The notes under the pieces were generated by a model. It did not search any database. It was not told the DNA's origin and saw only the letters and a list, made by a program, of their open reading frames with translations. From the IMG/VR virus record IMGVR_UViG_3300044858_003398: a stretch of DNA of 64,000 bases; one strand, written 5' to 3'. Origin of the DNA: a virus. Shown here one piece after another: positions 5,137-29,014 of this stretch; position 1 is the stretch's first letter; the number at the start of each line of letters is the position of its first letter. A program made the position numbers and the translations under genes.

Positions 5137-5203
5137 TTGCTCGATCCGATCGTAATTGGATTATGTACCTATAATCTAATACGGTCGAGCCGACTTGGGA
5201 GAC

Positions 5204-7192: not shown

Positions 7193-7264
7193 GCTACACT
7201 TCGTTGGGCTAATCGCCCCGGTAAAAGAGAAAGGGCCGACTTGCCCCTTGTATGCCGTTACGCC

Positions 7265-10491: not shown

Positions 10492-10546
10492 TATCAACCT
10501 CTTGAGTCCGTAGGACTCCGGTAAAAGAGAAGGTGTACCATTATTA

Positions 10547-10595
10547 TATACGCATTTAGCTAATTCTGGGGCTGTTTAGTAAGAAATAGCGTATA
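10547..10595. promoter_or_regulatory. divergent pair of SCGTATW late-type motifs
   Basis: GCGTATA on minus (10547-10553) and on plus (10589-10595) at the divergence point. Confidence 0.5.
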
Positions 10596-10643
10596 ATGGG
10601 GGTGGAGTACCCCTTCTTTTCTATTACATCATTGTTATAAGGC

Positions 10644-13204: not shown

Positions 13205-13255
13205 AGGGTGACGGGGGCCTCCCTCCCCGCTCCACCCGGCAAGGATGGCGGGTGG
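13205..13255 (+). repeat. module-boundary element copy 1 (divergent)
   Basis: AGGGTGA-N17-GCT-CCACCC-GGCAAGGATGGC-GGGTGG. Confidence 0.75.
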
Positions 13256-13295
13256 TAGTTGTTACCATCTTCAGACACTCTTCAGGACCTGCACT

Positions 13296-13613
13296 ATGAT
13301 CGTTACCCCCGGCATGGCTGGCTACGCTACTGGCTTTGGCTTCATTGGGAACCCTTACTTCCATGGTGACGTCCACTGGCGTCTCAAGGACGGGGACACC
13401 GTAATGGAGTGCGAGAGCACCCACCCTCAGGCCATGCCAATCGCAGAGGCCTACGCCGAGCTGCGTCGGCAGTTCGAGGAAGACAACGCCGCGTGGGAGT
13501 GTGAGGCGGCACGCCTAGATGACCTGTATGAATCCGCCCGGTATGAGGCGATGCTGGAGGCCGAGTGGGCACCCATCGAGCGGCTCTATGCCATTCAGGA
13601 TGCTCTCTCGTAG
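13296..13613 (+). CDS. hypothetical protein
   Basis: ATG after AGGA; sole gene between repeat copies 1 and 2. Confidence 0.6.
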   Translation: MIVTPGMAGYATGFGFIGNPYFHGDVHWRLKDGDTVMECESTHPQAMPIAEAYAELRRQFEEDNAAWECEAARLDDLYESARYEAMLEAEWAPIERLYAIQDALS

Positions 13614-13642
13614 GGGGACCTACTCGGTCGCACAAGGAGAGG

Positions 13643-13693
13643 GGCCTGAAAGGGCCCTATCCTCCTGTTTCACCCGGCAGGCGTGGCGGGTGA
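13643..13693 (+). repeat. module-boundary element copy 2
   Basis: GGCCTGA-N17-GTT-TCACCC-GGCAGGCGTGGC-GGGTGA. Confidence 0.9.
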
Positions 13694-13989
13694 CACATCA
13701 CACAACTCTCAGACGGATACCTGATCATGAGAAAATTCCTTGTTTCTTTCGTTTTCTCTAATGGCTTCACCCACGAGATTCAGGTTGATGCGATCACTGC
13801 AATGCTGGCCGTGAGAAACGCCCACGCGAAACTCTCAGAAACGGTAAATCTGTCTGAAGCTGTTGAAATTATTTGTACAGAGAAAGTCTGAAAAATGAAG
13901 ACAATCGACTGGCTTTGTGTGGTGTTCTACTATACAATTGGGCCTGTGGTTGGCCTATGGTGGTTTTTCCTGTTGAGAGAATTAATGTT

Positions 13990-14136
13990 ATGACACAATA
14001 CATCTGGATAGTTGTGGATTATGATTCTTGGGAATACCCAATCTACTATGGGGCTTTCCAGTCTCAGGAAGCGGCAGAAGCCAAAGCCGCAGAAATGCGA
14101 GCCGATGTTGAGAAAGTAGAATTCTTTACTACATAG
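13990..14136 (+). CDS. small protein of the YG(P/A)F family
   Basis: MTQYIWIVV...YYGAFQSQEAAE. Confidence 0.55.
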   Translation: MTQYIWIVVDYDSWEYPIYYGAFQSQEAAEAKAAEMRADVEKVEFFTT

Positions 14137-14343
14137 TCGGACGACCTCCGGCAAAACCGGCCATATAGACGGAAGCCATGTGCGACCGCGTGACCGGCGT
14201 TATCTCTCGGGACTATGGAAGACCGAGACACCCTGCAAAAGAAAATCAGCAGGAGTCGATGCCTTTGGGCTAATTTTACTGAGCTTCCCAGTCTTGAGAC
14301 TCGACATGGGAATAGGTATGCTTAGAGTCCACACTAAGGGGGA

Positions 14344-14394
14344 GGGGTGAAGTGCCCCTCCCTTCCTGTTTCCACCGGCAGGCGTGGCGGTGGA
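14344..14394 (+). repeat. module-boundary element copy 3
   Basis: GGGGTGA-N17-GTT-TCCACC-GGCAGGCGTGGC-GGTGGA. Confidence 0.9.
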
Positions 14395-14410
14395 TAGTTA
14401 AACACAAACA

Positions 14411-14623
14411 ATGGAGCGAAGCATGTTCATTACCCTCACGATCAAGTCTCTGTCACCAACCAAGTCTGAAATCCATGTACGCACGACCAGCGTCACAAGC
14501 GTCAAGGCCGATGGGAATGGCTCGCTTCTCTCAGTAATGGGAATCGGTGATCTTGCCGTTACTGAGAAACCTCTGCATATTCTGAATTGGATTTCTGATA
14601 AAGAAACAATTTCTCGTCGCTAG
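14411..14623 (+). CDS. hypothetical protein
   Basis: ORF directly after repeat copy 3. Confidence 0.5.
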   Translation: MERSMFITLTIKSLSPTKSEIHVRTTSVTSVKADGNGSLLSVMGIGDLAVTEKPLHILNWISDKETISRR

Positions 14624-14883
14624 GGCTTGACGGGAAATGCGGATTTGATACAATGGGGCCTAACGGCCCCTAAACCCCTGAGGAGAAAAGCTCATGCAAC
14701 CATACTGTGTCGAAATCACTTTCGCGTCTGGCTCTACAATCCAACAGGAAGTCAGAGCATTGGGTTTCACCGATGCAATCAACACTATTGTTGACAAAGT
14801 GTCCACATACGTCTTCGAGACAATCATTATGGTCAAAGTCTGGCCACTAGCTTAATTGGACACGAGCGGCCAGTACTAAGGGT

Positions 14884-14934
14884 GGGGCGACAGGCCTCTA
14901 CCTTGCGGTTCTACCCGGCAGGCGTGGCGGGTAG
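14884..14934 (+). repeat. module-boundary element copy 4
   Basis: GGGGCGA-N17-GTT-CTACCC-GGCAGGCGTGGC-GGGTAG. Confidence 0.9.
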
Positions 14935-14956
14935 CAAAACACACAACAGTGCTGAG

Positions 14957-15101
14957 AAGAGGGTTCACAGGGGGATAAGGGTGTTTCCTGATACTGGTGT
15001 ACACAGTGTTGGGCACAAGCCTTATTGTACAGTGGTTGTATACGATAGGCGTATGAGCCACTAGGATTCGCGACAGCGAGTATCCCCCTGCGAGCCCTTT
15101 T
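14957..15101 (+). ncRNA. unnamed structured RNA with a pseudoknot
   Basis: 20-bp closing stem, internal hairpins, loop AGTGGTT complementary to AGCCACT. Confidence 0.55.
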
Positions 15102-15138
15102 AGGCCACAAAAATTCACCCCTTTTAGGATTGTCAATT

Positions 15139-15462
15139 ATGAGAACTTCAATCAAGACCATGGTCAAGACCAAGAGCACTTCAGGCCAGCATCATGCGTC
15201 CCTGACTTTCTGGACACGGGACGAACAGGGCAACCTGCGAGGGATCTGGGTGTCGGGGAGCACATTCTCATCTGGAGACTCGATCCTCGGGATTCGGATG
15301 ACTGGAAATCAGGAAGTTTCCAGCGAAATCTTCAAGAGCCTTGACAATGCTGTCGAGTTCCCTACAATGCACGGGAAGGTCAAGGCCCGGATCTGCAAGA
15401 ACCGGATTTTCGTGAAAATCCCTGACGGGGTTGTGATGGATCACGAGCATCTGCCAGTATAA
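15139..15462 (+). CDS. hypothetical protein
   Basis: ATG after AGGA. Confidence 0.6.
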   Translation: MRTSIKTMVKTKSTSGQHHASLTFWTRDEQGNLRGIWVSGSTFSSGDSILGIRMTGNQEVSSEIFKSLDNAVEFPTMHGKVKARICKNRIFVKIPDGVVMDHEHLPV

Positions 15463-15558
15463 TCCCGCTCGGGATGACGAAAAACGACTTTTCCAAAAAC
15501 ATTGGCTTTATTAACCACCCGGTCGGGCCTTGTCCCGATCGGGATTCCGGAGGAATCC

Positions 15559-15762
15559 ATGAGACGTTTTGAGATTATGGCAACAACGGAACGAGACGGG
15601 GAACAGGTTTTCCTCCCAGCGTTTTACATCGACGCGGAGAATGCTTTAGAGGCTCGTAGGCTTGCGAGGAACGTAGTGGGGGGTAGAGAGACCGCCCTAG
15701 CTGTAATCGCCGAGGGTGCCCTAGAGGGTAGTGTGGCAAGCAACAGGACGTGGGGCCGGTAA
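15559..15762 (+). CDS. hypothetical protein
   Basis: GGAGG RBS. Confidence 0.6.
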   Translation: MRRFEIMATTERDGEQVFLPAFYIDAENALEARRLARNVVGGRETALAVIAEGALEGSVASNRTWGR

Positions 15763-15778
15763 AAGAGGAATAGGGGGT

Positions 15779-15829
15779 GGGGTGACAGGCCCCTTTCTTT
15801 CCGTTCTACCCGGCAGGCGTGGCGGGTAG
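15779..15829 (+). repeat. module-boundary element copy 5
   Basis: GGGGTGA-N17-GTT-CTACCC-GGCAGGCGTGGC-GGGTAG. Confidence 0.9.
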
Positions 15830-15854
15830 CAAACAATACAACAAAGGGATAGAC

Positions 15855-16133
15855 ATGACGGCCACAGTATACAAAAAAGATGCAGAAGTAGCGAAAGTAG
15901 AACGAGACAGCCTTTGGGGTATGATTCATGCCCTTAAGGGTCTTATCCCTGATGAGCTATACACACAGCTTCAGACATCGATGTCAGATGTCGATCAAGC
16001 GTGCGTCCCAAAAGTTCCGATCTGGCGAGGATATACCCAGATTGGAGTCGGCCTCAGTAAATCACAAAAGGCTATTGCCTGTGACCAGATGAGTGCCATC
16101 ATCAAACAAATCAAAGCTTTAAAAGCATGGTAG
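15855..16133 (+). CDS. hypothetical protein
   Basis: AAGGGA RBS after the repeat. Confidence 0.6.
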   Translation: MTATVYKKDAEVAKVERDSLWGMIHALKGLIPDELYTQLQTSMSDVDQACVPKVPIWRGYTQIGVGLSKSQKAIACDQMSAIIKQIKALKAW

Positions 16134-16259
16134 GATTGACAGGTTAAAGTCTCTCTGATATAATCCCTCATAAGGAGAATGATGATGTCGTGGAAATATG
16201 TTCGATTTCGCGAATAATAAAAACGTGAGAATCGAGCAGTAAAAGAGAAGTTGAAACAC

Positions 16260-16310
16260 GGGCCGAAAGGCCCCTTTCTTTCCGTTCTACCCGGCAGGCG
16301 TGGCGGGTAG
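16260..16310 (+). repeat. module-boundary element copy 6
   Basis: GGGCCGA-N17-GTT-CTACCC-GGCAGGCGTGGC-GGGTAG. Confidence 0.9.
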
Positions 16311-16338
16311 CAAACAATACGACATACGGAGAAACGAA

Positions 16339-16572
16339 GTGATCAACACTATTGAATGCTGGGCTGAGATCTGCATGCAAGACATTGCTGAAAACTGTGA
16401 ATTCTGTAAGGTTGTTTGTATCAACCCCTCGACAAACCGGAAGGAATCACATATAATGGTTCCAAGTGAGAAGGTTATCGAGGGAATCAAGAATGGTGGT
16501 CTCAAGGTGAACAACGGAGAACGGTATATTCTGGTGTCGGTCGATCCCGACAACATTGATAGGCTCTGGTAG
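16339..16572 (+). CDS. hypothetical protein
   Basis: GGAG RBS, GTG start. Confidence 0.55.
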   Translation: MINTIECWAEICMQDIAENCEFCKVVCINPSTNRKESHIMVPSEKVIEGIKNGGLKVNNGERYILVSVDPDNIDRLW

Positions 16573-16576
16573 TCTT

Positions 16577-16651
16577 GAGCAAACTTACCTAGCGGTCCAA
16601 CAGGGCTGACGTGCAGGGTTTGGTTTAGTGGTTCGATTCCACAGTTTGCTC
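16577..16651 (+). ncRNA. degenerate tRNA-like RNA
   Basis: GAGCAAACT/AGTTTGCTC closing stem, GTGG-TTCGATT-CCAC T arm; anticodon arm poorly paired. Confidence 0.4.
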
Positions 16652-16688
16652 CTCTTGCAAGACGGTTTATGATCTTTTGGAAGGTGTG

Positions 16689-16922
16689 ACTTGCACCGTA
16701 AGCAAAAACATCCTTATCCGGTTTATGGCTCCACTTCAGAAGCAAGAGATTTTCCTCAAAAAGTATTGGTAGTCTCGTCAATAGGTTCGCAACTCAACTG
16801 ACGTTAACTTTGAGTGTGCCGTAGAATGGTTTGATTCAGCAGGTTCGTGTCCTCAACGCAGTAGGAAAGAAGAACCGCCAGCGAGGAAACTCTTAAAGTG
16901 TCACGCCCTAACGGTGTAAGCC
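16689..16922 (+). ncRNA. unnamed multibranch structured RNA
   Basis: nested long-range pairings CACCGT/ACGGTG and AAGAG-TTTCCTC/GAGGAAA-CTCTT enclosing several hairpins; no plus-strand ORF. Confidence 0.5.
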
Positions 16923-16999
16923 GATTCCTCCAGAAATTGGAGTGGGCCTAGGGGGAAACCTGTGAACACACTGAACGCCATCATCTTAAGGAGTGTACC

Positions 17000-17323
17000 A
17001 TGATTAGCGAAAAACGAGATACAAGCACGATTTTCAAACTATCGAGCGAAGTATTCACAACGGTGATTGATGTTCCTGTGACTTTTGTAATTGACACAGC
17101 GGACGACTTCCATTGTCGTGTCCATCCGATGGACTGGATGAAATATGTTTCCAGTATATCGGACGACGGGGAATCCGTTTACTCGGAATGCACAATCGAG
17201 GAATTCTGTAAAAAAGAAAAGATCAGCATCTATCGACTTTGCGACGGAATCGCTGATCAGTCTGCATCTCTGGTTTGGGAAATTCTCTGTCGGCCTAGAC
17301 ATGGCGGAATGCTAAACGGTTGA
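17000..17323 (+). CDS. hypothetical protein
   Basis: AAGGAG RBS. Confidence 0.65.
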   Translation: MISEKRDTSTIFKLSSEVFTTVIDVPVTFVIDTADDFHCRVHPMDWMKYVSSISDDGESVYSECTIEEFCKKEKISIYRLCDGIADQSASLVWEILCRPRHGGMLNG

Positions 17324-17342
17324 AACACGGGGGTGGGGACTG

Positions 17343-17393
17343 GGGCCGAAAGGCCCCTTTCTTTCCGTTCTCACCGGCAGGCGTGGCGGTGAG
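17343..17393 (+). repeat. module-boundary element copy 7
   Basis: GGGCCGA-N17-GTT-CTCACC-GGCAGGCGTGGC-GGTGAG. Confidence 0.9.
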
Positions 17394-17577
17394 CACTTAA
17401 GCGACACATTCAAGCACACGAGGGACTATGAACTCACTATCTCAAGAACAGTTGATGATTGTTATTCGTGCTCTGTCTCTGTACATGATTGATCAGGTAC
17501 AGAATGGTGATTTGGATAATTCAGAGAAAACGGCCAAATTGATTCACGAAGCGGCCCACAACATTAAGGGGTAAGAT

Positions 17578-17844
17578 ATGAACGTTCGTCAAGCTGTTGC
17601 GAAAATCCGAGAACAAGAAAGCAAAACGGGAGTCAAAGAGGTTTTGCTGATTGATTCGGGTTTTGTCGGCAGGGCTGAAAAGGCCTATCGTAGAAACCTG
17701 CAAGATCCCGGAGATTGTGCAGTAGATGAATTCCTACTTCTGGGACTTTCGATCGCTGAAGCCGACATTGGACAGGGAACTGGTTGGATTCCCGAAGTCC
17801 AGAAAATCGGCGTCAGATATGCCGAAATCCTAGAGAAAGCCTAG
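17578..17844 (+). CDS. hypothetical protein
   Basis: AAGGGG RBS. Confidence 0.6.
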   Translation: MNVRQAVAKIREQESKTGVKEVLLIDSGFVGRAEKAYRRNLQDPGDCAVDEFLLLGLSIAEADIGQGTGWIPEVQKIGVRYAEILEKA

Positions 17845-17998
17845 GCAGAAAGAAGTTCTGCCATGGAAGCAACAATTAAAGAACTCTGGCAAGAATACAC
17901 CCGGAAGTACCTTGCTAAATTCGGAGAGTTCCCTAGAATACGCATCACAAGTCGTGACGCTTTAATCCTTGCAATTCTTGAATTGGAAAACCCCTACG

Positions 17999-18361
17999 AT
18001 GAGCCAGACTATGACTTTGATTGAGCAGATTGATTCCCTGAAGACTCCGGCCCGAGACCTATTGAAAGGTCTCTATGATGCTTGGAGCGAAGCTATTGAG
18101 ATTCCCAATTCTCTGCTGCCGCCTAGGCTGCATGGTCGCACTGGCCGAACGGCCAAAGACCTCCTTCACCCGAAGAAAACCGCCGCCGAGATCAAAAAGC
18201 AGGAAGCTGAAGACCGCGAGATTGAAAAGGAACTCCGGCTTGAAGCCTATTGTGCGGACACTGACGCACAACGAGAGATCCGCTTCCACGAGGACGAGGA
18301 ACGCCTCTACCGTAATCAATTGGCTTTCGCCAATCTAATCGGGATCGAATTTGATGAATAG
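17999..18361 (+). CDS. hypothetical protein
   Basis: ORF track, internal ATG. Confidence 0.6.
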   Translation: MSQTMTLIEQIDSLKTPARDLLKGLYDAWSEAIEIPNSLLPPRLHGRTGRTAKDLLHPKKTAAEIKKQEAEDREIEKELRLEAYCADTDAQREIRFHEDEERLYRNQLAFANLIGIEFDE

Positions 18362-18446
18362 CATAATGGTCTGGATAGTTGTTGTTATCATCTGTATGAT
18401 TTCAACATGCTTAGTGTTAGACAATGACAATTTCTAGGAAATGAGA

Positions 18447-18497
18447 GGGGTGACGAGCCCCTCCTTTGCTGTTTCACCCGGCAGGCGTGGCGGGTGA
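18447..18497 (+). repeat. module-boundary element copy 8
   Basis: GGGGTGA-N17-GTT-TCACCC-GGCAGGCGTGGC-GGGTGA. Confidence 0.9.
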
Positions 18498-18542
18498 CAC
18501 TTAGTGTTACTCTGGTGCTCCTCGGAAAGTTCTGTTTTGTGC

Positions 18543-18570
18543 TTGACAACGGAACGTTGTCTGGTACAAT
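18543..18570 (+). promoter_or_regulatory. sigma70-type early promoter
   Basis: TTGACA-16-TACAAT with inverted repeat GACAACG/CGTTGTC. Confidence 0.75.
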
Positions 18571-18624
18571 GTACCTGTCTGGTGGCAATTCGCCGCCTAA
18601 AACCCCTGTTTCTGGAGAATTGGT

Positions 18625-19500
18625 ATGACTACTTTGATTTCTGCTGCTGACGTTGTTCGCTCTACTTTCAACTTTACTGTTGACAAACTGCGTCTGGAAG
18701 GTCCGGACGGGTTTAAGACGCCCTATTACGGGCTTTTCAAGTCCGACGACAATTCCTGCCTGAATGCGGTGACGGCGAAGTATTCGCCGCACACCACTGA
18801 CGATGTTGTCGTTCTGGTTGAGGCCGCTCAGGCTGCTTTCGATGATGGTGTCAACGTCCAGTGCCATTGGCGAAACGGCCACTACGTGGTTATCGAGCCT
18901 ACTCGCGAGCACCGCAAAGCGGTTTACGGGACTGCCGACAACATCTTCCCACGCATGATCGTCTCGGCGGGGTATGATGATCGTCCGTTCCGTGCGTCTC
19001 TCGGTATGTTCCGAGATGCCTGCTTGAATCTTGCTCGCCTGAAGCAAGTGTCTGGAACCAGCGTTTCAATTCGTCACACTCAGTCGCTCCGGCCTCGCCT
19101 GAATGAACTGATCGACGTGTTCTCTGGCCTGAAAGAGGGCTGGAAGTCGGTGACTGAGACCGTCGCAGAAATGGAAGCGAGACAAGTCTCGCTTGTGAGT
19201 TTCCTCGATGCCGTCTACCCGCTCGCGTCTGATGCGACTCCGCGATCAGTCACGATTCACAAGAATCGTACCGAAGCGATTGTAAAGCGTGTAATGTCCG
19301 AATGCTATCGGACTGGCCGAACTTTCGGCGGGGACTTCATGGTCTCTCGGTTTATAGCGTACAACAGCGTTCAGGGGTATGTTCAGCACGTCCAGCGTGC
19401 GGGTAAGGGTGGCGATCGAATGTCCCGTATGGATCAGACCCTGATGGCCCTTGAGGACCCCGCAGTCGACCGTGCTGAGGCACTGGCGATTGCCGCCTAG
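18625..19500 (+). CDS. DUF932/DUF945-like phage/plasmid protein
   Basis: 291 aa; LGMFRDACLNLA...SIRHT pattern of this family. Confidence 0.6.
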   Translation: MTTLISAADVVRSTFNFTVDKLRLEGPDGFKTPYYGLFKSDDNSCLNAVTAKYSPHTTDDVVVLVEAAQAAFDDGVNVQCHWRNGHYVVIEPTREHRKAVYGTADNIFPRMIVSAGYDDRPFRASLGMFRDACLNLARLKQVSGTSVSIRHTQSLRPRLNELIDVFSGLKEGWKSVTETVAEMEARQVSLVSFLDAVYPLASDATPRSVTIHKNRTEAIVKRVMSECYRTGRTFGGDFMVSRFIAYNSVQGYVQHVQRAGKGGDRMSRMDQTLMALEDPAVDRAEALAIAA

Positions 19501-19530
19501 GGGGTAGGGTGGTGAGAGACCCGAGGGAGG

Positions 19531-19581
19531 GGGCTGAGAGGCCCCTTCCTTCCTGTTCCCACCGGCAGGCGTGGCGGTGGG
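19531..19581 (+). repeat. module-boundary element copy 9
   Basis: GGGCTGA-N17-GTT-CCCACC-GGCAGGCGTGGC-GGTGGG. Confidence 0.9.
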
Positions 19582-19617
19582 CAATCAAGCCAAATACCTG
19601 AGCCAAAAGAATCTCAC

Positions 19618-19645
19618 TTGACAAGCACAATTGTTGTGCTACAAT
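19618..19645 (+). promoter_or_regulatory. sigma70-type early promoter, palindromic spacer
   Basis: TTGACA-16-TACAAT, AGCACAA/TTGTGCT. Confidence 0.8.
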
Positions 19646-19683
19646 GCGTGTGTCAGTTAAAAACCCCTAGTTGAGAGACAGTC

Positions 19684-20970: not shown

Positions 20971-21042
20971 GGCTAAAGCCTCGAATATGGTGGCTAGGGT
21001 TCAGGGGTGTCCCCTAGCCGCCCTGAGGGGTGGGGTCGAAAG

Positions 21043-21094
21043 GCCCTGCCCCTCCCCTTTCTTCCCGCTCGTCCCGGCCACTTGTGGCGGGACG
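21043..21094 (+). repeat. module-boundary element copy 10 (loop variant, upstream box displaced)
   Basis: GCT-CGTCCC-GGCCACTTGTGGC-GGGACG. Confidence 0.8.
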
Positions 21095-21119
21095 CACTAC
21101 TCGACACACTGAGACAACC

Positions 21120-21290
21120 ATGTACGAAGTCAAGCCTATCAACTCTGTCTTTGGCATTGTCAACATCTATGGTGATTTTATCACCAATGAGAATGGCATC
21201 ATGATCTTTGAAACAGAGCTTGACGCCCAGACTTTCTGTGATAGAATTAACGTGTGCAGTGATGGTGGTATCATCACTAATTTCATCTAG
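21120..21290 (+). CDS. hypothetical protein
   Basis: ATG after the repeat. Confidence 0.55.
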   Translation: MYEVKPINSVFGIVNIYGDFITNENGIMIFETELDAQTFCDRINVCSDGGIITNFI

Positions 21291-21299
21291 GACAAAGCC

Positions 21300-21584
21300 A
21301 TGTATCGTGCAGATTTTGAAGAATCAATCGATTTTGACCAAATCCTCCTGTTTGAGGTTAAAGAGACACGGTATCTCTACAGGTTTAGTCACTACGAGTG
21401 CTATCACTACTTCCGCAATGGAGTAGAAATTGCATACTTCATTCCATGCATGGATCGTGGGCTAGTGTTTGAAACTCCCAGAATCTGGCATGAATCTTTC
21501 AAATCTCATCCGAGTATGAGAGATCTTAATTACAGAAAGGATGATTGTGGACTGCAAACGACTACAGATTTACCGCCATCGTGA
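21300..21584 (+). CDS. hypothetical protein
   Basis: start preceded by GGACAAAGCC. Confidence 0.55.
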   Translation: MYRADFEESIDFDQILLFEVKETRYLYRFSHYECYHYFRNGVEIAYFIPCMDRGLVFETPRIWHESFKSHPSMRDLNYRKDDCGLQTTTDLPPS

Positions 21585-21744
21585 CATGATGGCAATTCAG
21601 GGGGAAGGATTCCCCACGATCTATCTGAACGCTGCCATGTGTCACATGTTGGCCAAGAACCTTCAGGATGGAGTCGTGAGTTTGCTCAGCGACAAGGAAT
21701 TCTCAAAGAGCAATTTTCCAGATACGACCTTGCAAGCGAACTAA
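21541..21744 (+). CDS. hypothetical protein
   Basis: ORF track. Confidence 0.5.
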   Translation: MIVDCKRLQIYRHRDMMAIQGEGFPTIYLNAAMCHMLAKNLQDGVVSLLSDKEFSKSNFPDTTLQAN

Positions 21745-21806
21745 AGTTCGCTATAATGGGCTCACAAATTCACCTGTTTCATTTTTAACCCCTAAGAGGC
21801 GAAGCC

Positions 21807-22100
21807 ATGCAGTACGTTTCACGAGCCGAACTCATCGAAAAGATCAAAGCCACCAATGGGACCATTTTCAGCGTCCTGTTCCTCAAGAGTCGTAGCAACA
21901 ACGAACCCCGCCGCATGAATTGCATGCTGAACGTGAAGAAGCACCTTACAGGTACGGGGAAGGCCGCTCCTGAGTCCGCCAAAGTTATTACAGTCTATGA
22001 CCTCGTCAACAAGGGCTATCGCTCCATTGCCCACGAGGGGCTGATTCAAGCCCAAATCGGTAAAGAGGTGTATGAGGTCCGAGAATTGGTGGCGAAGTAA
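21807..22100 (+). CDS. SH3/WYL-like beta-barrel protein
   Basis: FSVLFLK...R.M.C....VYDL..KGYRS pattern; own promoter 21730-21757. Confidence 0.55.
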   Translation: MQYVSRAELIEKIKATNGTIFSVLFLKSRSNNEPRRMNCMLNVKKHLTGTGKAAPESAKVITVYDLVNKGYRSIAHEGLIQAQIGKEVYEVRELVAK

Positions 22101-22115
22101 GTTCCATAGGAACTT

Positions 22116-22188
22116 GGGTAGTGTCCTCGACGGTTTTGAGGACGGTCCTTATAAGGCCGCACACATGGTTCGATTCCATGACTGCCCA
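22116..22188 (+). tRNA. tRNA-Ile (UAU)
   Basis: acceptor GGGTAGT/ACTGCCC, anticodon arm CGGTC-CTTATAA-GGCCG, T arm CATGG-TTCGATT-CCATG. Confidence 0.8.
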
Positions 22189-22189
22189 C

Positions 22190-22217
22190 TTGACAGCAAC
22201 ATATTTGTTGCTATAAT
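22190..22217 (+). promoter_or_regulatory. sigma70 promoter for the RNA cluster, palindromic spacer
   Basis: TTGACA-16-TATAAT, AGCAACA/TGTTGCT. Confidence 0.8.
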
Positions 22218-22292
22218 TCAAATCCCGCCCTGATTCATCAGGTGGTGTAAATAAGCACACAAGTGTTCACTCACTAGGAGTGCGGGATTTTC

Positions 22293-22364
22293 GGCCCATT
22301 AGTTGTGAAGTCATGACGTCGCACTTTCACTGCGAAGGAGCGGGAGCATTACCCGCATGGGTCA
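22293..22364 (+). tRNA. tRNA-Glu (UUC), atypical T loop
   Basis: GGCCCAT/ATGGGTC acceptor, TCGCA-CTTTCAC-TGCGA, T loop AGCATTA. Confidence 0.7.
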
Positions 22365-22430
22365 TTTGAGGTCGCGGCTCGATAGGTTCATGGGGTTCAT
22401 TCCAGCAGACCTATCGGGCGGGCCTCGTTT

Positions 22431-22521
22431 TAAGCCAGCCTATTACATTGGTTCGAATCCAATACACTTCGTGTTCGTCTAGTGGTCAGGACGATAGGTA
22501 TTTTCAATTTTCAGAAGGCTT
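22431..22521 (+). ncRNA. circularly permuted tRNA mimic (YrlA/Y-RNA-like)
   Basis: T arm precedes D arm, acceptor closed by ACAC-TTC-GTGT, CCTAT/ATAGG and AAGCC/GGCTT closing stems. Confidence 0.7.
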
Positions 22522-22527
22522 TAGCCC

Positions 22528-22794
22528 ATGTTTCAATTGGTCAAATTCTCCTGTGATTGTGTCGGAACTGCCCCAATCGGTGGGGTCACAACAATGGTTA
22601 AAAGTTGCGATGGAGAAGGCAATCTTTCCTTCTACCAGCGAAAAGTTGAGAACAAGAGTTTCCGCCCGCTCTCCTCTGAAGAAACTGAGGAATTCCGCTC
22701 AGAGCTTGAAAAGCTCATCTTGGATGGATACAATATGAAGGCCATGAGGTCGGTCCTAGGCGTTCAAACACAACTTAAGAAACTACTGGAGTAA
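22528..22794 (+). CDS. hypothetical protein
   Basis: ORF track. Confidence 0.6.
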   Translation: MFQLVKFSCDCVGTAPIGGVTTMVKSCDGEGNLSFYQRKVENKSFRPLSSEETEEFRSELEKLILDGYNMKAMRSVLGVQTQLKKLLE

Positions 22795-22799
22795 GTCAT

Positions 22800-22851
22800 G
22801 GGCTGAAAGGCCCCTTTCCTCCTGTTCTAGCCGTCCACTTGTGGCGGCTAG
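22800..22851 (+). repeat. module-boundary element copy 11
   Basis: GGGCTGA-N17-GTT-CTAGCC-GTCCACTTGTGGC-GGCTAG. Confidence 0.9.
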
Positions 22852-22876
22852 CACATAACACCCAACTGAGACCACC

Positions 22877-23041
22877 ATGAGATCAATCAAAGTCTACTTC
22901 TCTAACGGCGATCATCTGTTCACCAACATCAATGGTACGAATGATCACATCCTCGCTTACTACATCGGGAAAGAATTCAATCTCGGGAATGGTGAGCATG
23001 ATCTGATGGCAATTGCCACAAAGGTTGAGTTTCTAGATTGA
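22877..23041 (+). CDS. hypothetical protein (54 aa)
   Basis: read from sequence: MRSIKVYFSNGD...VEFLD. Confidence 0.55.
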   Translation: MRSIKVYFSNGDHLFTNINGTNDHILAYYIGKEFNLGNGEHDLMAIATKVEFLD

Positions 23042-23263
23042 CTTTCCTTTTACTGATGGTATAATTTTACTATGAGCAGCAAAATAAAGTACCATACCCA
23101 CTATGACGTATTTGCCAGACTCTATCGTTTGACGTTATTGGGTGGTGAATTTGCCAATTGTCATGGACAGGGGCCAACGATAGAACAGGCTGAGATCAGT
23201 CTCAGGCTGACTATCAATGCGTTGCGAAAAAGGTCTTGACTTCTCTTTTACTGATGGTATAAT
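23038..23263 (+). promoter_or_regulatory. two near-identical sigma70 promoters carrying the 13-bp box (or a near copy) in the spacer
   Basis: TTGACT-16-TATAAT at 23038-23065 and 23236-23263. Confidence 0.75.
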
Positions 23264-23269
23264 AACCCC

Positions 23270-23473
23270 ATGAAACCAACACCAGAACAAGTAGAATCAC
23301 TAGCAAACTTGGTAGTCGAGTCAATGACACTCGAACAACTTCAGCAATTTGTCTTCGACGACATATATTCCATCATGCTGGAAGATGATGATTGTTTCGA
23401 GTCAAATCTAGAAATGTTGAAAATCTCAGTCGATGACTTAGTTATCGATCCAATTCCATTGATGCCACTATAA
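23270..23473 (+). CDS. hypothetical protein (probably leaderless)
   Basis: ATG 7 nt after the -10 box. Confidence 0.6.
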   Translation: MKPTPEQVESLANLVVESMTLEQLQQFVFDDIYSIMLEDDDCFESNLEMLKISVDDLVIDPIPLMPL

Positions 23474-23640
23474 TTCCCGGCGTCAGTCGGGTGACACACA
23501 GGGGGCATTAAACAGCCTAGGGGCCTATCGGCTAATCTTCAAACGTCCCAACGTGCGAAGTACCTAACACAAGCTTGAAAAGCTTAAATACCCTGTGTGG
23601 CTTATTTTATAAACCACACTGAAAAACTAAGGGGACTAAA

Positions 23641-23877
23641 ATGGTTGGCGTAGACGAAGTTGTTGTTGAGTTCTCGGGCTGGTGCCGAATTCCTGCCAGA
23701 AAGATTAAGTTCCAGTATACTGGAGAGAATGAATCCATTCCTGAGATTATCTCAGGAGAAGAGTATATTAAGCTCTCAGTAACAGAACGACAGGACTACA
23801 TCGCAGAAAGCATCTGTGATGCAATGAGAGACTCCGACGATCTTGAGTGGTCCGATATTCAGATCGTTGCTGATTAA
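23641..23877 (+). CDS. hypothetical protein
   Basis: AGGGG RBS. Confidence 0.6.
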   Translation: MVGVDEVVVEFSGWCRIPARKIKFQYTGENESIPEIISGEEYIKLSVTERQDYIAESICDAMRDSDDLEWSDIQIVAD

Positions 23878-23885
23878 AACACCAC

Positions 23886-24020
23886 GCCCACTTAGTTTAT
23901 CTGGCGAAAACACGCCTGTCAGTCAACCGAATACGTGGGTTAACACGCGGATAGGGTCACGGAGTAATTAACCGCTGATAGCTGACGACCGAGAACGGGG
24001 TTCGAAGCCCTGAGTGGGCT
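23886..24020 (+). ncRNA. tRNA shell with a branched domain in place of the anticodon arm
   Basis: GCCCACT/AGTGGGC acceptor, intact D arm and T arm, ~80-nt insert. Confidence 0.65.
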
Positions 24021-24027
24021 ACTTACA

Positions 24028-24087
24028 TGCAGAGTGGAAGGGGGAGAAATCCCCCTTGTAATGCGACTTTCCGGTCACAAGTCCGGA
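24028..24087 (+). ncRNA. twister ribozyme, type P5 permutation
   Basis: P2 TGCA/TGCG, L1 GAGTG and TAA, P1 AAGGGGG/CCCCCTT, P4 TCCGG-TCACAAGT-CCGGA, both pseudoknots supported (GTG/CAC, AC/GT). Confidence 0.75.
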
Positions 24088-24093
24088 CACTTT

Positions 24094-24120
24094 GAGCCTA
24101 GCAATTGCTAGGCTCTTTTT
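24094..24120 (+). terminator. intrinsic terminator
   Basis: GAGCCTAGC/GCTAGGCTC + TTTTT. Confidence 0.8.
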
Positions 24121-24126
24121 GTTGGT

Positions 24127-24178
24127 GGGCTGAAAGACCTCTGCCTTCCTGTTACACCCGGCCACTTGTGGCGGGTGT
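24127..24178 (+). repeat. module-boundary element copy 12
   Basis: GGGCTGA-N17-GTT-ACACCC-GGCCACTTGTGGC-GGGTGT. Confidence 0.9.
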
Positions 24179-24291
24179 CACTTCAGTAACTTCCAAGCGA
24201 CTCAAATCGTGAGTTTTTCGCTTGACTCTTATTGATAGTGTGTTACAATGCACCAGTCAAGTCAATCACCCCTAGTTTACGGAGTAAACCT

Positions 24292-25041
24292 ATGAAGTTC
24301 TCACCAGCTAACGTCAAGATCAAGGCATTATCCGGCGTTCCTGCAATCGCCAAATACCTTCCCAAAGGCAAGAAAGTTTACAGTTTCGACATTCTTTCTG
24401 GACATTCGTGCCCGTTCGCGGATGAGTGCCTTTCGAAAGTTGTTGAGACTCCCGAAGGATTCCGCATTCAAGACGGTCCAAATACTGAATTCCGATGTTT
24501 TTCTGCTTCTCAGGAAGTCATTTTCACGAACGTGCGAAAACTACGTTCTGCAAATTTTGCAGAACTGAAAGGACTGACGACTGAACAAATGGCCAGCAAA
24601 TTGCTGGCGGCTATGCCGAAGAATTTAGGAGTCTGCCGGGTTCACGTTGCCGGGGATTTTTTCAATCAAAATTATTTCAATGCGTGGTTGGCTATCGCTC
24701 TTGCGAATCCTGACCGATTGTTTTACGCTTATACGAAAAGCCTGCCATATTGGGTGAATCAGATTGGTATCATTCCTGAGAATTTTGTGCTCACAGCTTC
24801 TCGCGGTGGTCGCAAGGATGATATGATCGACACCTATGGGCTTCGTTCTGTCAAGGTAGTTTTTCATCCGAGTGAAACAATTCTCGAAATTGACCACACG
24901 GATGAACACGCCGCAAACCCTGAAACTCGCAATCAGGATTTTGCTCTACTGATTCACGGAGTACAGCCGAAGGGATCTAACGCCGCAAAAGCTATTCGAA
25001 CTCTCAAATCCGAGAACGTGGAATTCTCATATTCCGCGTGA
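24292..25041 (+). CDS. gp88-like (radical-SAM-related) phage protein
   Basis: SCPFADECL...CF, RVHVAGDFF, FYAYTKS. Confidence 0.65.
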   Translation: MKFSPANVKIKALSGVPAIAKYLPKGKKVYSFDILSGHSCPFADECLSKVVETPEGFRIQDGPNTEFRCFSASQEVIFTNVRKLRSANFAELKGLTTEQMASKLLAAMPKNLGVCRVHVAGDFFNQNYFNAWLAIALANPDRLFYAYTKSLPYWVNQIGIIPENFVLTASRGGRKDDMIDTYGLRSVKVVFHPSETILEIDHTDEHAANPETRNQDFALLIHGVQPKGSNAAKAIRTLKSENVEFSYSA

Positions 25042-25159
25042 AAGGGGGTCGAATGAGATTGCTTTTCTGGCTCATGATTGTCCTGATTGCGGGAATGCTC
25101 AAAGGAATCCTAGGATATAAGGACGGGCGGTGAGTAAGGGGGAGGGAATACCTCCCCTC

Positions 25160-25210
25160 GGCTCGCCGGGCCTGAGCCTTCCTGTTCGTTCCGCCTGTCA
25201 TGGCGGAACG
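25160..25210 (+). repeat. module-boundary element copy 13 (divergent)
   Basis: CCTTCCTGTT-CGTTCC-GCCTGTCATGGC-GGAACG. Confidence 0.75.
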
Positions 25211-25315
25211 TGTTTCTGTGTCTTCTGTCTCAATCTTTTGCCTAATTGCTATTGACATTAGAAACATGTGTGATACAATGGGTGTATAAGAAACAACGAA
25301 CCAAAGGAGTCAACA

Positions 25316-25549
25316 GTGGAAATCAATTGGCCAGAGAATTCAAAATCAGAAATTTCCGCAAAGATTATCTCTGATGGAATCACAATTCGGCACACCGGAA
25401 CAGGATGTTACGATGGGGACTATGCTCCTATTGTCATCGAGTGGTATGATGGGGTTCCTCGTATCATCATCTGGGCAGACATCAACGATCAAGATCCGAC
25501 ACACATCATCGACATGAGCAAGGCTCTGGAGTCTAACCGCCATGAGTAA
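25316..25549 (+). CDS. hypothetical protein
   Basis: AAGGAG RBS, promoter 25252-25279. Confidence 0.65.
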   Translation: MEINWPENSKSEISAKIISDGITIRHTGTGCYDGDYAPIVIEWYDGVPRIIIWADINDQDPTHIIDMSKALESNRHE

Positions 25550-26015
25550 ACCGATTGCAAACAGCCATGAGGGCCAATTGGCCCTTCTCAATCCCGAGAA
25601 ACCTTGCCGGATCTACCGCAATCTCCACACCGGCCTCTGGTCAGTGAAACAGGGTGTAGTACGGTTTCATACCGACTGCATTTTTCTGAAAGACGCAACT
25701 TTTCTCGTTAATGAGAAAGTTCGGCAACGTGTAATTGCTAACAAGAGGAAAGAAGTTCACGCCTACGTACAGGGGTTCATCTGCGATCGTCCCGACTACT
25801 TCACAGTTGGTGTCGATTGTTACGAAGTGACCTACAATCCGTATAAGTGCCGACACTTCGTAACAGGTGACAGATTCGCCTTCTCTGCTGACATAGTTTG
25901 CCTGAACAAGCAGAGAGAAGGAAATGAATTCAAGATGCGAGTATTCGCATCAAACATATTGACAGAGGCTATCGCCTCTGATATGATTCAGTCAGTTCCA
26001 GTTCACATCCTCTAG
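25542..26015 (+). CDS. conserved phage hypothetical protein
   Basis: YRNLH..WSV...KEVHAYVQG...YNPY. Confidence 0.6.
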   Translation: MSKPIANSHEGQLALLNPEKPCRIYRNLHTGLWSVKQGVVRFHTDCIFLKDATFLVNEKVRQRVIANKRKEVHAYVQGFICDRPDYFTVGVDCYEVTYNPYKCRHFVTGDRFAFSADIVCLNKQREGNEFKMRVFASNILTEAIASDMIQSVPVHIL

Positions 26016-26025
26016 GGAATCTACC

Positions 26026-26535
26026 ATGCCAAACTGGTGCAACAACTATGTGGAATTCTCATGTTCAAGAGAACTCTACAACAAGTACAACATGGGAGCG
26101 TTTCAGTTCTCTAACCTGCTACCATGCCCACCTGAATTGCTGGAACGGTCAGCTCCGAATAGCGACGACCCAGAAGAAATGCGAGCAAAGTACGAACACC
26201 CAGACTGGTACGATTGGTGCGTATGCAGATGGGGCTGCAAATGGGATATTGAAGAAGCAACCCCATCTCTGGATGATTCCCATTCGTCAGAAGTTGTGTC
26301 TGGCTCAATCGCATTTGATACAGCGTGGTCGCCACCGATTGAACTCTACAGACATATGGAAAGTTTAGGCTTTCAGATTGATGCCATGTACTTCGAAGGT
26401 GGTATGGCGTTCTATGGGTTCTATCACGATGGTAGCGAAGACACCCAGAACTTTTCAAACTACGATGATATTCCCGAGAACGTAGCCACTACTTTCGGGA
26501 TTGATGAAGAGTGTTACGAAGAATGTGAAGACTAA
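26026..26535 (+). CDS. DUF1281/YubB-like ferredoxin-fold protein
   Basis: MPNWCNN, WYDW...WGCKWD, FDTAWSPP. Confidence 0.7.
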   Translation: MPNWCNNYVEFSCSRELYNKYNMGAFQFSNLLPCPPELLERSAPNSDDPEEMRAKYEHPDWYDWCVCRWGCKWDIEEATPSLDDSHSSEVVSGSIAFDTAWSPPIELYRHMESLGFQIDAMYFEGGMAFYGFYHDGSEDTQNFSNYDDIPENVATTFGIDEECYEECED

Positions 26536-26601
26536 TAGGTCTGGTATGTTCCAGACCGATTTTTTCGAAACCCGGCAAAGCCGGACAATAGGGGTAAAAT
26601 C

Positions 26602-26949
26602 ATGGTCACAGTTACAGAACTTCGCTCAGCTTACGCAGCCGCCGCCGCCAATGGTGAGACCAACGAACAGTTGGCCGCAACACTTGGAATCAAGCTAGCT
26701 TCGCTCCAACAGAACATCACAGCGGCCCGAAAAGATCTGCGGGAGATTGGCACCACTGAGGATGAACTCAAGCTTATCTTCCCTCCTCTCAAGCGTCGTA
26801 CCGGCCCACGCACCTCGAAGCGAGCCGAAGCATTGCTGGCGATGCGAGACGCGGCCCGATTGATTGCTGCTCCTGCGGAGCCGGAAGCTCCGACCGATTC
26901 CGAGGTCGAAGACCTCAGCGAACTCGAAGCATTGACCGCTCCCGTGTAG
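26602..26949 (+). CDS. putative HTH DNA-binding protein
   Basis: NEQLAATLGIKLASL HTH-like segment. Confidence 0.45.
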   Translation: MVTVTELRSAYAAAAANGETNEQLAATLGIKLASLQQNITAARKDLREIGTTEDELKLIFPPLKRRTGPRTSKRAEALLAMRDAARLIAAPAEPEAPTDSEVEDLSELEALTAPV

Positions 26950-27096
26950 TCCGATCCGAGGGGGCGGAAAGTTTCCGTCCCCTCTTGACTTTGGGACAAA
27001 GTCTCTTAAAATGGAGCGAGGGGTGCTGAATGCGTGTATTAAAGTTTGTGGCGATTTTGATCATTTTGTCGATGTTCAGAGGGATTTCGAGTTACA

Positions 27097-27282
27097 ATGA
27101 CGGCAGAAGTTAGCACAATTGATGGGGAAACTGAGGTAATTCGGGTACTTCGTGCTCGAATTGCCTCTCTTGAGACCGAGAATTCGTCACTAAAGGACGA
27201 TATTGCTGAGTTAGAGCGTGAAATGGAGTACATTTCGCGTGCAAAACACACAAAACGGAGACGTCAAGATGAGCTGGATTAA
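27097..27282 (+). CDS. hypothetical coiled-coil protein
   Basis: ORF track. Confidence 0.5.
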   Translation: MTAEVSTIDGETEVIRVLRARIASLETENSSLKDDIAELEREMEYISRAKHTKRRRQDELD

Positions 27283-27535
27283 GGCGGCAGAACGCGAAGA
27301 CGCCAAAGACAGAACTAAGATCCGATCAATGTTCGGGGTAACAGCACACGTCCCGATCATCGAAGACGAAAAATTCACAGAGCCGACACTAGACGGAACG
27401 TCTGGCGGCTGGTTCACTAAAGGTGGAACACCTATCGCTTACCCTTCAGCCTACTCGAAGAAGGGATTCAGCAATATGGTATACGAAGGATCATCTCTGA
27501 CGATCCGAGTCCCTAGAGGATTCAAAATACGATAG
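27269..27535 (+). CDS. hypothetical protein
   Basis: GGAG RBS, followed by a terminator. Confidence 0.55.
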   Translation: MSWIKAAEREDAKDRTKIRSMFGVTAHVPIIEDEKFTEPTLDGTSGGWFTKGGTPIAYPSAYSKKGFSNMVYEGSSLTIRVPRGFKIR

Positions 27536-27567
27536 AGGGGGGAGGGCGATTGCTCTCCCTCTTTTTT
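27536..27567 (+). terminator. intrinsic terminator
   Basis: G-rich/C-rich stem + T-run. Confidence 0.65.
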
Positions 27568-27572
27568 GTTCT

Positions 27573-27624
27573 GGGGTGACTGGGCTGTACTATGCAGTTC
27601 ATTCCGCCCGAAAGGGGCGGAATG
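27573..27624 (+). repeat. module-boundary element copy 14 (divergent)
   Basis: GGGGTGA-N17-GTT-CATTCC-GCCCGAAAGGGGC-GGAATG. Confidence 0.7.
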
Positions 27625-28158: not shown

Positions 28159-28353
28159 ATGAATCCCATCATCTTGATCTACTACAAAGAATGGAGAAGA
28201 GCTTATCCTCTTGTTCCTGCTAAGTGGGTTTTGTATTATGCTAAGCATTGCAGTACTGGATATATGCATCCAGTATCTGCTGTAGCATTCTTTGGGTTCG
28301 CTACCAGAGCGGCCAAGTTTAAAGAACTCATCAGTAAAAGAGAAATGGGCTGA
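28159..28353 (+). CDS. hypothetical protein
   Basis: ORF track, internal ATG. Confidence 0.5.
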   Translation: MNPIILIYYKEWRRAYPLVPAKWVLYYAKHCSTGYMHPVSAVAFFGFATRAAKFKELISKREMG

Positions 28354-28552
28354 CGTAGCCCTTCCTTCCCGTTCGCCCCTAGTGACACCTTTTGACTGTG
28401 GTTAGGACTTCCATGATAACCTCTTTGTTCTTTGCTGTACTTAATCTGTTCATTGCTATGAACTCTGATAATCCTAACCCATGGTATAATTGGATGGCGT
28501 CAGGCTTCTGTTTTGGACTTTTCTTAGCCTCGGTCGTAATGGAGATGTCTGA

Positions 28553-28744: not shown

Positions 28745-28971
28745 ATTGGCAACAAGTCCCAAATACAAGAGAGCTAGAACTATATATTGGATTCCTCCGA
28801 TATACAATAAGTGGCAAGTCTTGGAAGTGTGAATGTAAACTTGCTGACGGAAGCTTTGGTTTAGTGAAATCAGGGAAGGCAAGATCCCGCCCAGAAGCAG
28901 GTAAAAAGGCAGACCTACACTTCTTTAGTAACATCCTGCCTAACATGGGCGTAACGGAAGACAAGGGCTAA
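28741..28971 (+). CDS. hypothetical protein
   Basis: ATGA-coupled; ends in GVTEDKG. Confidence 0.5.
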   Translation: MNWQQVPNTRELELYIGFLRYTISGKSWKCECKLADGSFGLVKSGKARSRPEAGKKADLHFFSNILPNMGVTEDKG

Positions 28972-29014
28972 GTCGGCCCATTTCCTTTTTACTGAATGCG
29001 ATTGAGGCGAAGCC

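Follow-up and report, generated by a model that had tools for sequence, protein, structure and literature searches.

The window analysed here (the whole 64,000-nucleotide stretch of viral DNA, IMG/VR record IMGVR_UViG_3300044858_003398) raises the question of what a repeated two-hairpin element does at the boundaries of small genes, where 14 intergenic copies of it stand within 14.4 kb of small + strand open reading frames (ORFs; 13205-27624). To our knowledge, the gain and loss of small early "ORFan" genes in large virulent phages is poorly understood outside the T4 group, in which the promoter-early stem-loop (PeSL) is the only worked example. We conclude with high confidence that the element is a structured boundary repeat at module seams. 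The fuller explanation that we prefer, at about an even level of confidence, is a lineage-specific composite boundary cassette, PeSL-like in kind, that would act mainly at the RNA level while doubling as homology for recombination; the specific RNA activities suggested below for its two hairpins are offered with low confidence.

All 14 copies, each at the start given in the initial annotation of this DNA, lie on the + strand and follow a single order: a first hairpin (H1), a pyrimidine tract, a G-N-T trinucleotide (mostly GTT), a second hairpin (H2) and a CA-rich, G-poor leader, after which comes a Shine-Dalgarno (SD) sequence or a sigma70 promoter. H1 is GC-rich and carries a GNRA-type loop (CUGAAAG, GUGACAG and similar), which is the feature first described as a GGGYGA box. 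In most copies the purine-rich 5' strand of H1, which starts from or beside the upstream stop codon, pairs with the pyrimidine tract in stems of up to 13 bp, so that the 17-nt tract is largely the 3' strand of H1. The hairpin folds in nearly all copies, and its loop is kept even where the stem has degenerated (copies 12 and 14). A few unpaired bases ending in G-N-T separate H1 from H2, which follows directly as a 9-10 bp hairpin (predicted -12 to -19 kcal/mol). The H2 stem comprises four variable base pairs, then invariant C-G, C-G and G-C pairs and a G.G mismatch, past which two or three further pairs close a 3-6 nt loop (GGCG, CUUG or GAAAG). Viewed as sequence, H2 has outer arms of 6 nt around a core of 12 or 13 nt (GGCAGGCGTGGC in copies 2-9, G(G/T)CCACTTGTGGC in copies 10-12); the arm takes 11 sequences, each with a perfect reverse-complement partner, exactly as the initial annotation had tabulated them together with the two core types. 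The copies are listed below, with the 5' arm of H2 in brackets; scores are those of a covariance model, R1, built from the 14 window copies, and G002 is a related viral contig introduced further on.

13205-13255 (+), copy 1, 61.6 bits: H1 region, pyrimidine tract, GCT and H2 at 13232-13255, with arms CCACCC/GGGTGG and core GGCAAGGATGGC
13643-13693 (+), copy 2: H2 at 13670-13693 (TCACCC); then an SD-less leader and the next ORF, at 13727, without a sigma70 promoter
14344-14394 (+), copy 3: H2 at 14371-14394 (TCCACC); missing at this position in G002
14884-14934 (+), copy 4: H2 at 14911-14934 (CTACCC); homology with G002 breaks at 14948
15779-15829 (+), copy 5: H2 at 15806-15829 (CTACCC); upstream ORF stop at 15760-15762, next ORF at 15855, 26 nt past H2
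16260-16310 (+), copy 6: H2 at 16287-16310 (CTACCC)
17343-17393 (+), copy 7: H2 at 17370-17393 (CTCACC)
18447-18497 (+), copy 8: H2 at 18474-18497 (TCACCC); sigma70 promoter 45 nt downstream (18543-18570), then the DUF932 gene
19531-19581 (+), copy 9: H2 at 19558-19581 (CCCACC); sigma70 promoter 36 nt downstream
21025-21094 (+), copy 10: displaced 13-bp H1 at 21025-21054, GCT, H2 at 21070-21094 (CGTCCC), whose core, GGCCACTTGTGGC, has a bulged G and the loop CTTG; homology with G002 is lost at 21113
22800-22851 (+), copy 11: H2 at 22827-22851 (CTAGCC, core GTCCACTTGTGGC); homology with G002 resumes exactly at 22800
24127-24178 (+), copy 12: degenerate H1, H2 at 24154-24178 (ACACCC); upstream lie a twister-P5 ribozyme (24028-24086) and a canonical terminator (24094-24115)
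25160-25210 (+), copy 13: different H1 (GGCTC...GAGCC), H2 at 25187-25210, whose 9-bp stem (CGTTCCGCC) is uninterrupted and whose tail is T-rich; sigma70 promoter 41 nt downstream
27573-27624 (+), copy 14: weak H1, H2 at 27600-27624 (CATTCC GCCC GAAAG GGGC GGAATG); canonical terminator upstream (27534-27565)
28342-28391 (+), weak copy 15, 25.8 bits: H1, pyrimidine tract and GTT, without H2

R1 scores the 14 copies at 52-84 bits, and its next match in the window is the weak copy 15. Where 1.8 occurrences of the motif GGNYGAM-N16-GTT would be expected in the window, 16 are present, a count reached in 0 of 100 shuffles. The GTT box named by the initial annotation holds in most copies and gives way to GCT in copies 1 and 10 and to GAT in two relatives, while the upstream box, described as degenerate or displaced in copies 10 and 13, proves to be a displaced but real hairpin in the former and a different one in the latter. 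At the mismatch position of H2, copy 11 has U.G, copies 10 and 12 carry a bulged G, and copies 13 and 14 form a Watson-Crick C-G pair. Copies are nearly identical to one another over about 50-85 bp. A possible role of the conserved TGA in the H1 loop as the stop codon of an upstream gene was discarded: its frame is open for at least 30 codons in only 2 of the 14 copies.

That pairing rather than sequence is conserved in H2, as first claimed, is upheld by a larger set of 87 copies (74 distinct) drawn from the window, two related viral contigs and 16 metagenome contigs. In this set 97.9% of H2 cells are paired and 138 cells show double changes; 0 of 500 shuffles reach the observed level, and slid registers give 20-60%. 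The compensation can be followed between orthologs, with copy 13 having arms CGTTCC/GGAACG in the window, TGTTCC/GGAACA in G002 and CATCCC/GGGATG in contig L216, copy 1 having CCAGCC/GGCTGG in G002 (CCACCC in the window) and copy 2 having TTACCC/GGGTAA in contig L238 (TCACCC in the window). About 25 distinct H2 hairpins are known. Selection acts on the hairpin and not on the arm sequence. The chemistry of H1 is of another kind: G-U pairs make up 107 of its 608 predicted pairs (17.6%), on the + strand only, so that H1 looks like an RNA hairpin of the sense transcript.

The element is undescribed as a sequence family, as the initial annotation had supposed. No copy has a match in Rfam, at the gathering threshold or at E<=5, and an exact-core scan of 185,579 bacterial species genomes returned 35 single matches in unrelated taxa, the best scoring 22 bits and none being the element, which is therefore not a host repeat of the repetitive extragenic palindrome (REP) type. 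Carriers were found among viral and metagenome contigs. An exact-core scan of viral contigs identifies two relatives, G002 (139.8 kb, about 72% complete, 12+1 copies) and G001 (74.6 kb, 48% complete); viral-contig scans with two other core types, and terminase-based loci, gave no carriers besides these two. Scanning of metagenome contigs added the 16 further contigs with true copies.

Comparison with these relatives shows how the element relates to the genes around it. In syntenic blocks the window and G002 share 80-93% identity, but their early regions form a mosaic. Relatives mostly keep their modules in the same order, with W4-W5-W6-W7 in the window, W4-W5-W7 in G002, W4-W6-W7 in L216 and W4-W6-(tail of W5)-W7 in L197, and with two segments reversed in order in L210. 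Copy 6, the module at 16326-17337 and copy 7 correspond to a single element in G002, and units of this form, an element plus a module, are wholly present or wholly absent between relatives. Of 138 ends of homology blocks, 36 lie in an element or no more than 10 nt from one, 3.1-fold more than the 11.5 expected, although the p-value attached to this enrichment is optimistic because the relatives are not independent. Module content and order, which the initial annotation proposed to test for variation with breakpoints at the element, do vary between relatives, where modules are present or absent and are re-joined at the element; its description of a cassette-like early region, analogous to that of PeSL-bearing phages, is supported.

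The two hairpins segregate with different neighbours. When 150-nt flanks are clustered into left (L) and right (R) types, one left flank is found with several right flanks (L2 with R10 and R4; L3 with R4 and R1; L4 with R12, R1 and R10; L11 with R5 and R3). Among pairs of copies with the same right flank and different left flanks (n=75), H1 is the same in 57%, the pyrimidine tract in 48%, the arms in 89%, the core in 93% and the leader in 89%; among pairs with the same left flank and different right flanks (n=28), the corresponding values are 75%, 61%, 29%, 61% and 32%. H1 thus goes with the upstream module and H2, with its leader, with the downstream module, which places the module seam between H1 plus pyrimidine tract and H2, at G-N-T. 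The crossover point itself varies, with the pyrimidine tract segregating with either side and the exchange in L223_1480 lying downstream of H2, in the leader. Such a pattern is what homologous recombination between short shared patches would leave once selection had removed hairpins with mismatched arms, and it does not have the appearance of site-specific recombination.

Five metagenome contigs (L165, L170, L179, L223 and L235) end exactly at the GTT/H2 boundary and several more end inside an element. These ends are most simply an assembly break where copies with a common H2 diverge upstream, which would also mean that metagenome assembly systematically breaks such arrays into fragments.

The elements sit close behind stop codons, and what follows them varies. 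Past copies 2, 3, 5, 6 and 7 an SD sequence and start codon stand 26-35 nt beyond H2 without a sigma70 promoter between, past copies 8, 9, 12 and 13 a strong sigma70 promoter stands 36-45 nt beyond H2, and for the remaining copies such a promoter is 118-384 nt away or lacking. A sigma70 promoter was accordingly rejected as a fixed part of the element (36-384 nt away, or absent). Across the window, promoter-like sigma70 sites with an extended -10 number 37 against 16 expected in shuffles, and nearly all are on the + strand, which identifies a host-polymerase-transcribed early region. The initial statement that many modules have their own sigma70 promoter is in keeping with this excess, but only four copies have one at 36-45 nt. 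A promoter of perfect consensus precedes a copy rather than following it, and three units resembling H1 occur outside the array:

16136-16164 (+), consensus sigma70 promoter, 12 of 12 positions (TTGACA-17-TATAAT with TG), 95 nt upstream of copy 6
7234-7259 (+), H1-like unit without H2 (GGSCGACTTRSCCC, pyrimidine tract, CCGTT)
28953-28978 (-), H1-like unit without H2, of the same make-up
31793-31818 (-), H1-like unit without H2, of the same make-up

The consensus promoter is followed by an SD sequence (AAGGAGA) and a 12-codon ORF (about 16180-16218), with copy 6 directly after it, so that at least this copy lies inside a transcript and is read through. The layout of 16136-16260 (+) resembles a leader peptide plus attenuator, and its last 55 nt are 93-98% conserved upstream of elements in several relatives. 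Canonical terminators, each a hairpin with a U run, occur inside the array at 24094, 26958 and 27534. A simple terminator scan flags H1 of copies 5, 6, 7, 8, 10 and 13 and H2 of copy 13 only; the tails are UUUCUUUCC-like, that of H1 being a stretch rich in U and C and not a U run, and CA-rich tails follow most copies of H2. The H1-only units at 7234 and 28953 are antisense to the local genes, and their opposite strand reads as a hairpin plus TTTCTCTTTTAC, an ordinary terminator. Their existence indicates that the H1 unit, with its fixed distance to GTT, is itself a repeated terminator-like module to which H2 is an array-specific addition.

These observations lead to the following explanation. 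H1 would close the upstream unit as a leaky terminator or as a hairpin protecting the 3' end, and transcripts would end or be cut in the short single-stranded seam (Y-G-N-U). H2 and the unstructured CA-rich leader would open the downstream unit, H2 acting as a 5'-terminal protecting hairpin or, alternatively or in addition, positioning an endonuclease or binding protein at the G-N-U seam. The 50-85 bp common to the copies would at the same time serve as portable homology for recombination within a genome or between co-infecting relatives; given the near identity of copies over this length, ordinary homologous recombination could delete, insert and re-join whole expression-competent modules. 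The finding that H1 stays with the upstream gene and H2 with the downstream gene matches what such a functional division predicts. Processing or antitermination of RNA, one of three roles suggested in the initial annotation, is compatible with all observations and enters into this best explanation. The comparison with the early region of T7, where RNase III processing sites between genes are single irregular hairpins of about 20 bp, is partial: both are structured intercistronic elements in an early polycistronic region and both would leave mRNA ends protected by hairpins, but the element has two separate hairpins, whose stems (6-13 bp and 9-10 bp) fall short of the length of a canonical RNase III substrate.

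Several observations weigh against this explanation. H1 has no canonical U tract, although the same phage possesses canonical terminators, two of them directly upstream of copies 12 and 14. Copies 8, 9, 12 and 13 have their own promoter after H2, so that H2 is not the 5' end of the mRNA made there. The strict constancy of length from the H1 loop to H2, with zero indels across the 74 distinct copies, is not something the model requires. At the level of recombination, 74% of homology breakpoints lie outside elements and the mosaic pattern persists at 28-50 kb in the absence of any copy, so plasticity does not require the element. G-U accounts for only 1 of 235 predicted pairs in 25 distinct H2 hairpins, an avoidance that an RNA helix would not normally show and that would be expected if the hairpin formed in DNA. 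Either H2, short and interrupted by a mismatch, is strongly selected for stability, or it is read as DNA or on both strands; given the scarcity of G-U, H2 may have a role at the DNA level.

The fixed spacing that our explanation does not require counts in favour of a reading in which the two hairpins form one binding site. In a processive antitermination or protein-loading site of the nut or put type, the two-hairpin RNA would bind a phage or host factor, or RNA polymerase itself, through the H1 loop (GAAA or GACAG) and the G.G mismatch of H2, and downstream terminators would be read through. Small GNRA-type hairpins, or a hairpin pair, in a nascent early transcript have precedents in lambda and P22, whose boxB loops (GAAAA and GACAA) are GNRA-like, and in HK022, whose put site is a two-hairpin RNA; the strict distance between the hairpins, the H1 loop retained on degenerate stems, the purine-purine mismatch or bulge conserved between invariant C-G and G-C pairs, the strong promoter just upstream of copy 6 and the canonical terminators that must be passed within the array all agree with such a site. 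Yet nut and put sites number one or two per genome and lie just past early promoters, whereas 14 sites stand here at gene boundaries, most of them not just past a promoter, when a processive system needs one per operon. There is no boxA consensus, and the ORFs of the array include no convincing arginine-rich N-like protein. Antitermination also leaves the G-U avoidance of H2 unaccounted for, and segregation of H1 and H2 with different flanks would be odd for one functional RNA; we consider it unlikely. The element could instead be a promoter for a phage-directed polymerase, with a GGGYTGAMA upstream box and a YGTT -10-like box at a fixed 16-17 nt from it, and with H2 as a DNA hairpin or as the first transcribed structure. 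A candidate specificity factor is the small sigma-like protein of G002 and G001, which scores above the cut-off for Sigma70_r2 (28.6-30.1 bits):

L289:2016-2489 (-), equivalent to G002 136016-136489: 157-amino-acid sigma-like protein, Sigma70_r2 at 28.6 bits, with a C-terminal helix-turn-helix-like stretch
Window 9909-10358 (-): second, much weaker sigma-like candidate, 13.4 bits, beside the divergent region

The genes directly after copies 2, 3, 5, 6 and 7 have no sigma70 promoter of their own, and the Watson-Crick-only pairing of H2 would suit a DNA structure. The supposed upstream box is, however, the loop and 5' arm of a covarying hairpin that uses G-U pairs, an RNA feature, and copies 10 and 13 have no box at that position; moreover, a start 6-8 nt past GTT would fall within the 5' arm of H2, and the covarying stem could not form in the RNA. 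Nor does the motif precede the structural genes, and the H1-only units that are antisense to local genes read as ordinary terminators, on which two grounds the GGNYGA-N17-GTT geometry was also rejected as a late promoter. A search for T7-like RNA polymerase (PF00940) gave no match, but its control was positive in no genome and the result is uninformative as to a single-subunit polymerase. The promoter hairpins of the N4 virion RNA polymerase, to which the initial annotation had likened the element, have 5-7 bp stems and 3-nt loops and occur three times per genome. A likeness would lie in a DNA-level hairpin recognised by structure rather than arm sequence, but the interrupted 9-10 bp stem, the loops of 3-6 nt, the 14 copies and the abundance of host-type sigma70 promoters in the region all differ, and the analogy found no positive support. 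Overall a promoter is, in our judgement, rather improbable.

The remaining alternatives address H2 and its pairing. As a single-stranded DNA (ssDNA) hairpin for a site-specific recombinase or nuclease (attC-like or HUH-type), H2 would allow mobile cassettes to be exchanged at the GTT seam. Like attC sites, the elements form a co-oriented array with one sequence-variable imperfect palindrome after each gene unit, a conserved GTT and a mismatch or extrahelical base, and Watson-Crick-only pairing, the nearly invariant G-N-T placed exactly where left and right modules meet, the presence or absence of whole element-plus-module units and the enrichment of breakpoints are all in line with such a site. 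Against this, no Phage_integrase (PF00589, the domain of IntI-type integrases) or Resolvase domain was found in G002 or G001, incomplete as they are, although the controls of that search were positive in 14 of 14 genomes (PF00589) and 13 of 14. The tyrosine recombinase that the initial annotation had thought to look for was thus not found in either relative (139.8 kb in the case of G002), nor was a serine recombinase. There is also no stem formed by an inverse core RYYYAAC and a core GTTRRRY and no AAC-containing partner consistently past the 3' arm; the GTT is not part of the stem but precedes the hairpin on its 5' side. Crossovers occur at varying points rather than only at G|TT, modules often have promoters of their own and are largely syntenic, and the elements, strictly co-oriented with transcription, abut stop codons. 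The attC-like reading is therefore one we set aside as very unlikely. A wider possibility, which we think improbable though less so, is that H2 is recognised by a dedicated phage factor, either as an ssDNA hairpin targeting module exchange or as a hairpin-guided endoribonuclease site at G-N-U. Such a factor would recognise H2 by its near-absence of G-U, its mismatch or bulge and the geometry free of indels. In the ssDNA version, a virulent phage with no known recombinase would possess an integron-like system of cassettes, and in the endoribonuclease version every early transcript would be cut into insulated mRNAs with hairpins at both ends.

The composite boundary cassette that we prefer is best classed with regulatory and recombination cassettes of the PeSL kind, with a new anatomy. 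PeSL, a GGGG...CCCC stem-loop terminator combined with a sigma70 early promoter, has been shown in T4-type phages to terminate, to promote, to mark the breakpoints of indels between close relatives and to yield mini-circles with variable crossovers (Arbiol et al., 2010, PMC2839356; Comeau et al., 2014, PMC4122927). The element shares with it the form of a short cassette repeated between the small early genes of a plastic region, a GGGG...CCCC stem-loop right behind the upstream gene, the coincidence of indel or replacement breakpoints of close relatives with the cassette, crossovers at variable points inside the shared sequence, and repeat sequences that are lineage-specific. It differs in that its repeated part consists of two hairpins rather than a stem-loop and a sigma70 promoter, the promoter being not integral (it follows only 4 of the 14 copies at 36-45 nt and for copy 6 lies upstream); an H2 with covarying arms, a conserved mismatch and a G-N-T seam has no PeSL counterpart. 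The two also differ in their phages, that of the window not being T4-like, and in the kind of evidence, since terminator activity and mini-circles were shown for PeSL and the element is known from sequence.

The phage itself is large and tailed and has no close deposited relative. A megablast of the array against 50,697 phage records gave zero matches, and the large terminase resembles siphovirus-type terminases, those of the nearest deposited phages being only about 23% identical. Structural genes run leftward from about 10.4 kb and a long run of small + strand genes runs rightward, the element array occupying the first part of this rightward series. The window also encodes the DUF932 protein, a GP88-family protein, homing endonucleases, seven tRNAs and the twister-P5 ribozyme. 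Features outside the array and the ribozyme within it are as follows:

5204-7192 (-), large terminase
10644-11986 (+) and 37502-38236 (-), free-standing HNH and GIY-YIG/HNH homing-endonuclease genes flanking the start of the early region
24028-24086 (+), twister type-P5 ribozyme, 57.1 bits (gathering threshold 37.6), between a tRNA-like region and a terminator
51608-53380, rIIA-like gene

The homing endonucleases are further mobile elements in the same plastic region. In the relative G002 a DnaE-type DNA polymerase III alpha subunit is present, together with a large sugar-modification block comprising several glycosyltransferase families, UDP-galactopyranose mutase, a DegT aminotransferase and epimerases.

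G003, which is related more distantly, has a DUF932 protein 53% identical to that of the window. The element is absent from it (best R1 score 10 bits), and the same neighbourhood (G003/L327, IMGVR_UViG_3300030104_005320, 3700-11130) has 6-7 copies of a different intergenic composite repeat, made up of CGTAAGTCSTT, GTAAGGGKTTA, a GC-rich hairpin, a second CGTAAGTCSTT and ACTTACRAC. The L327 region also has a conserved promoter-like repeat (TTGAC...GACGATA...TA(G/T)AAT). With G003 carrying a repeat of its own in the same region, lineage-specific boundary cassettes may be common in the group.

A lineage unrelated to T4 thus displays a PeSL-like logic with a better-defined element, having two hairpins and a clear seam. 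The element provides a testable model of module boundaries, in which transcription units capped by hairpins could be swapped without disturbing their neighbours, and is a natural candidate for an RNA "insulator" part. Should H2 prove to act as DNA, a new signal for recombination or priming would be indicated.

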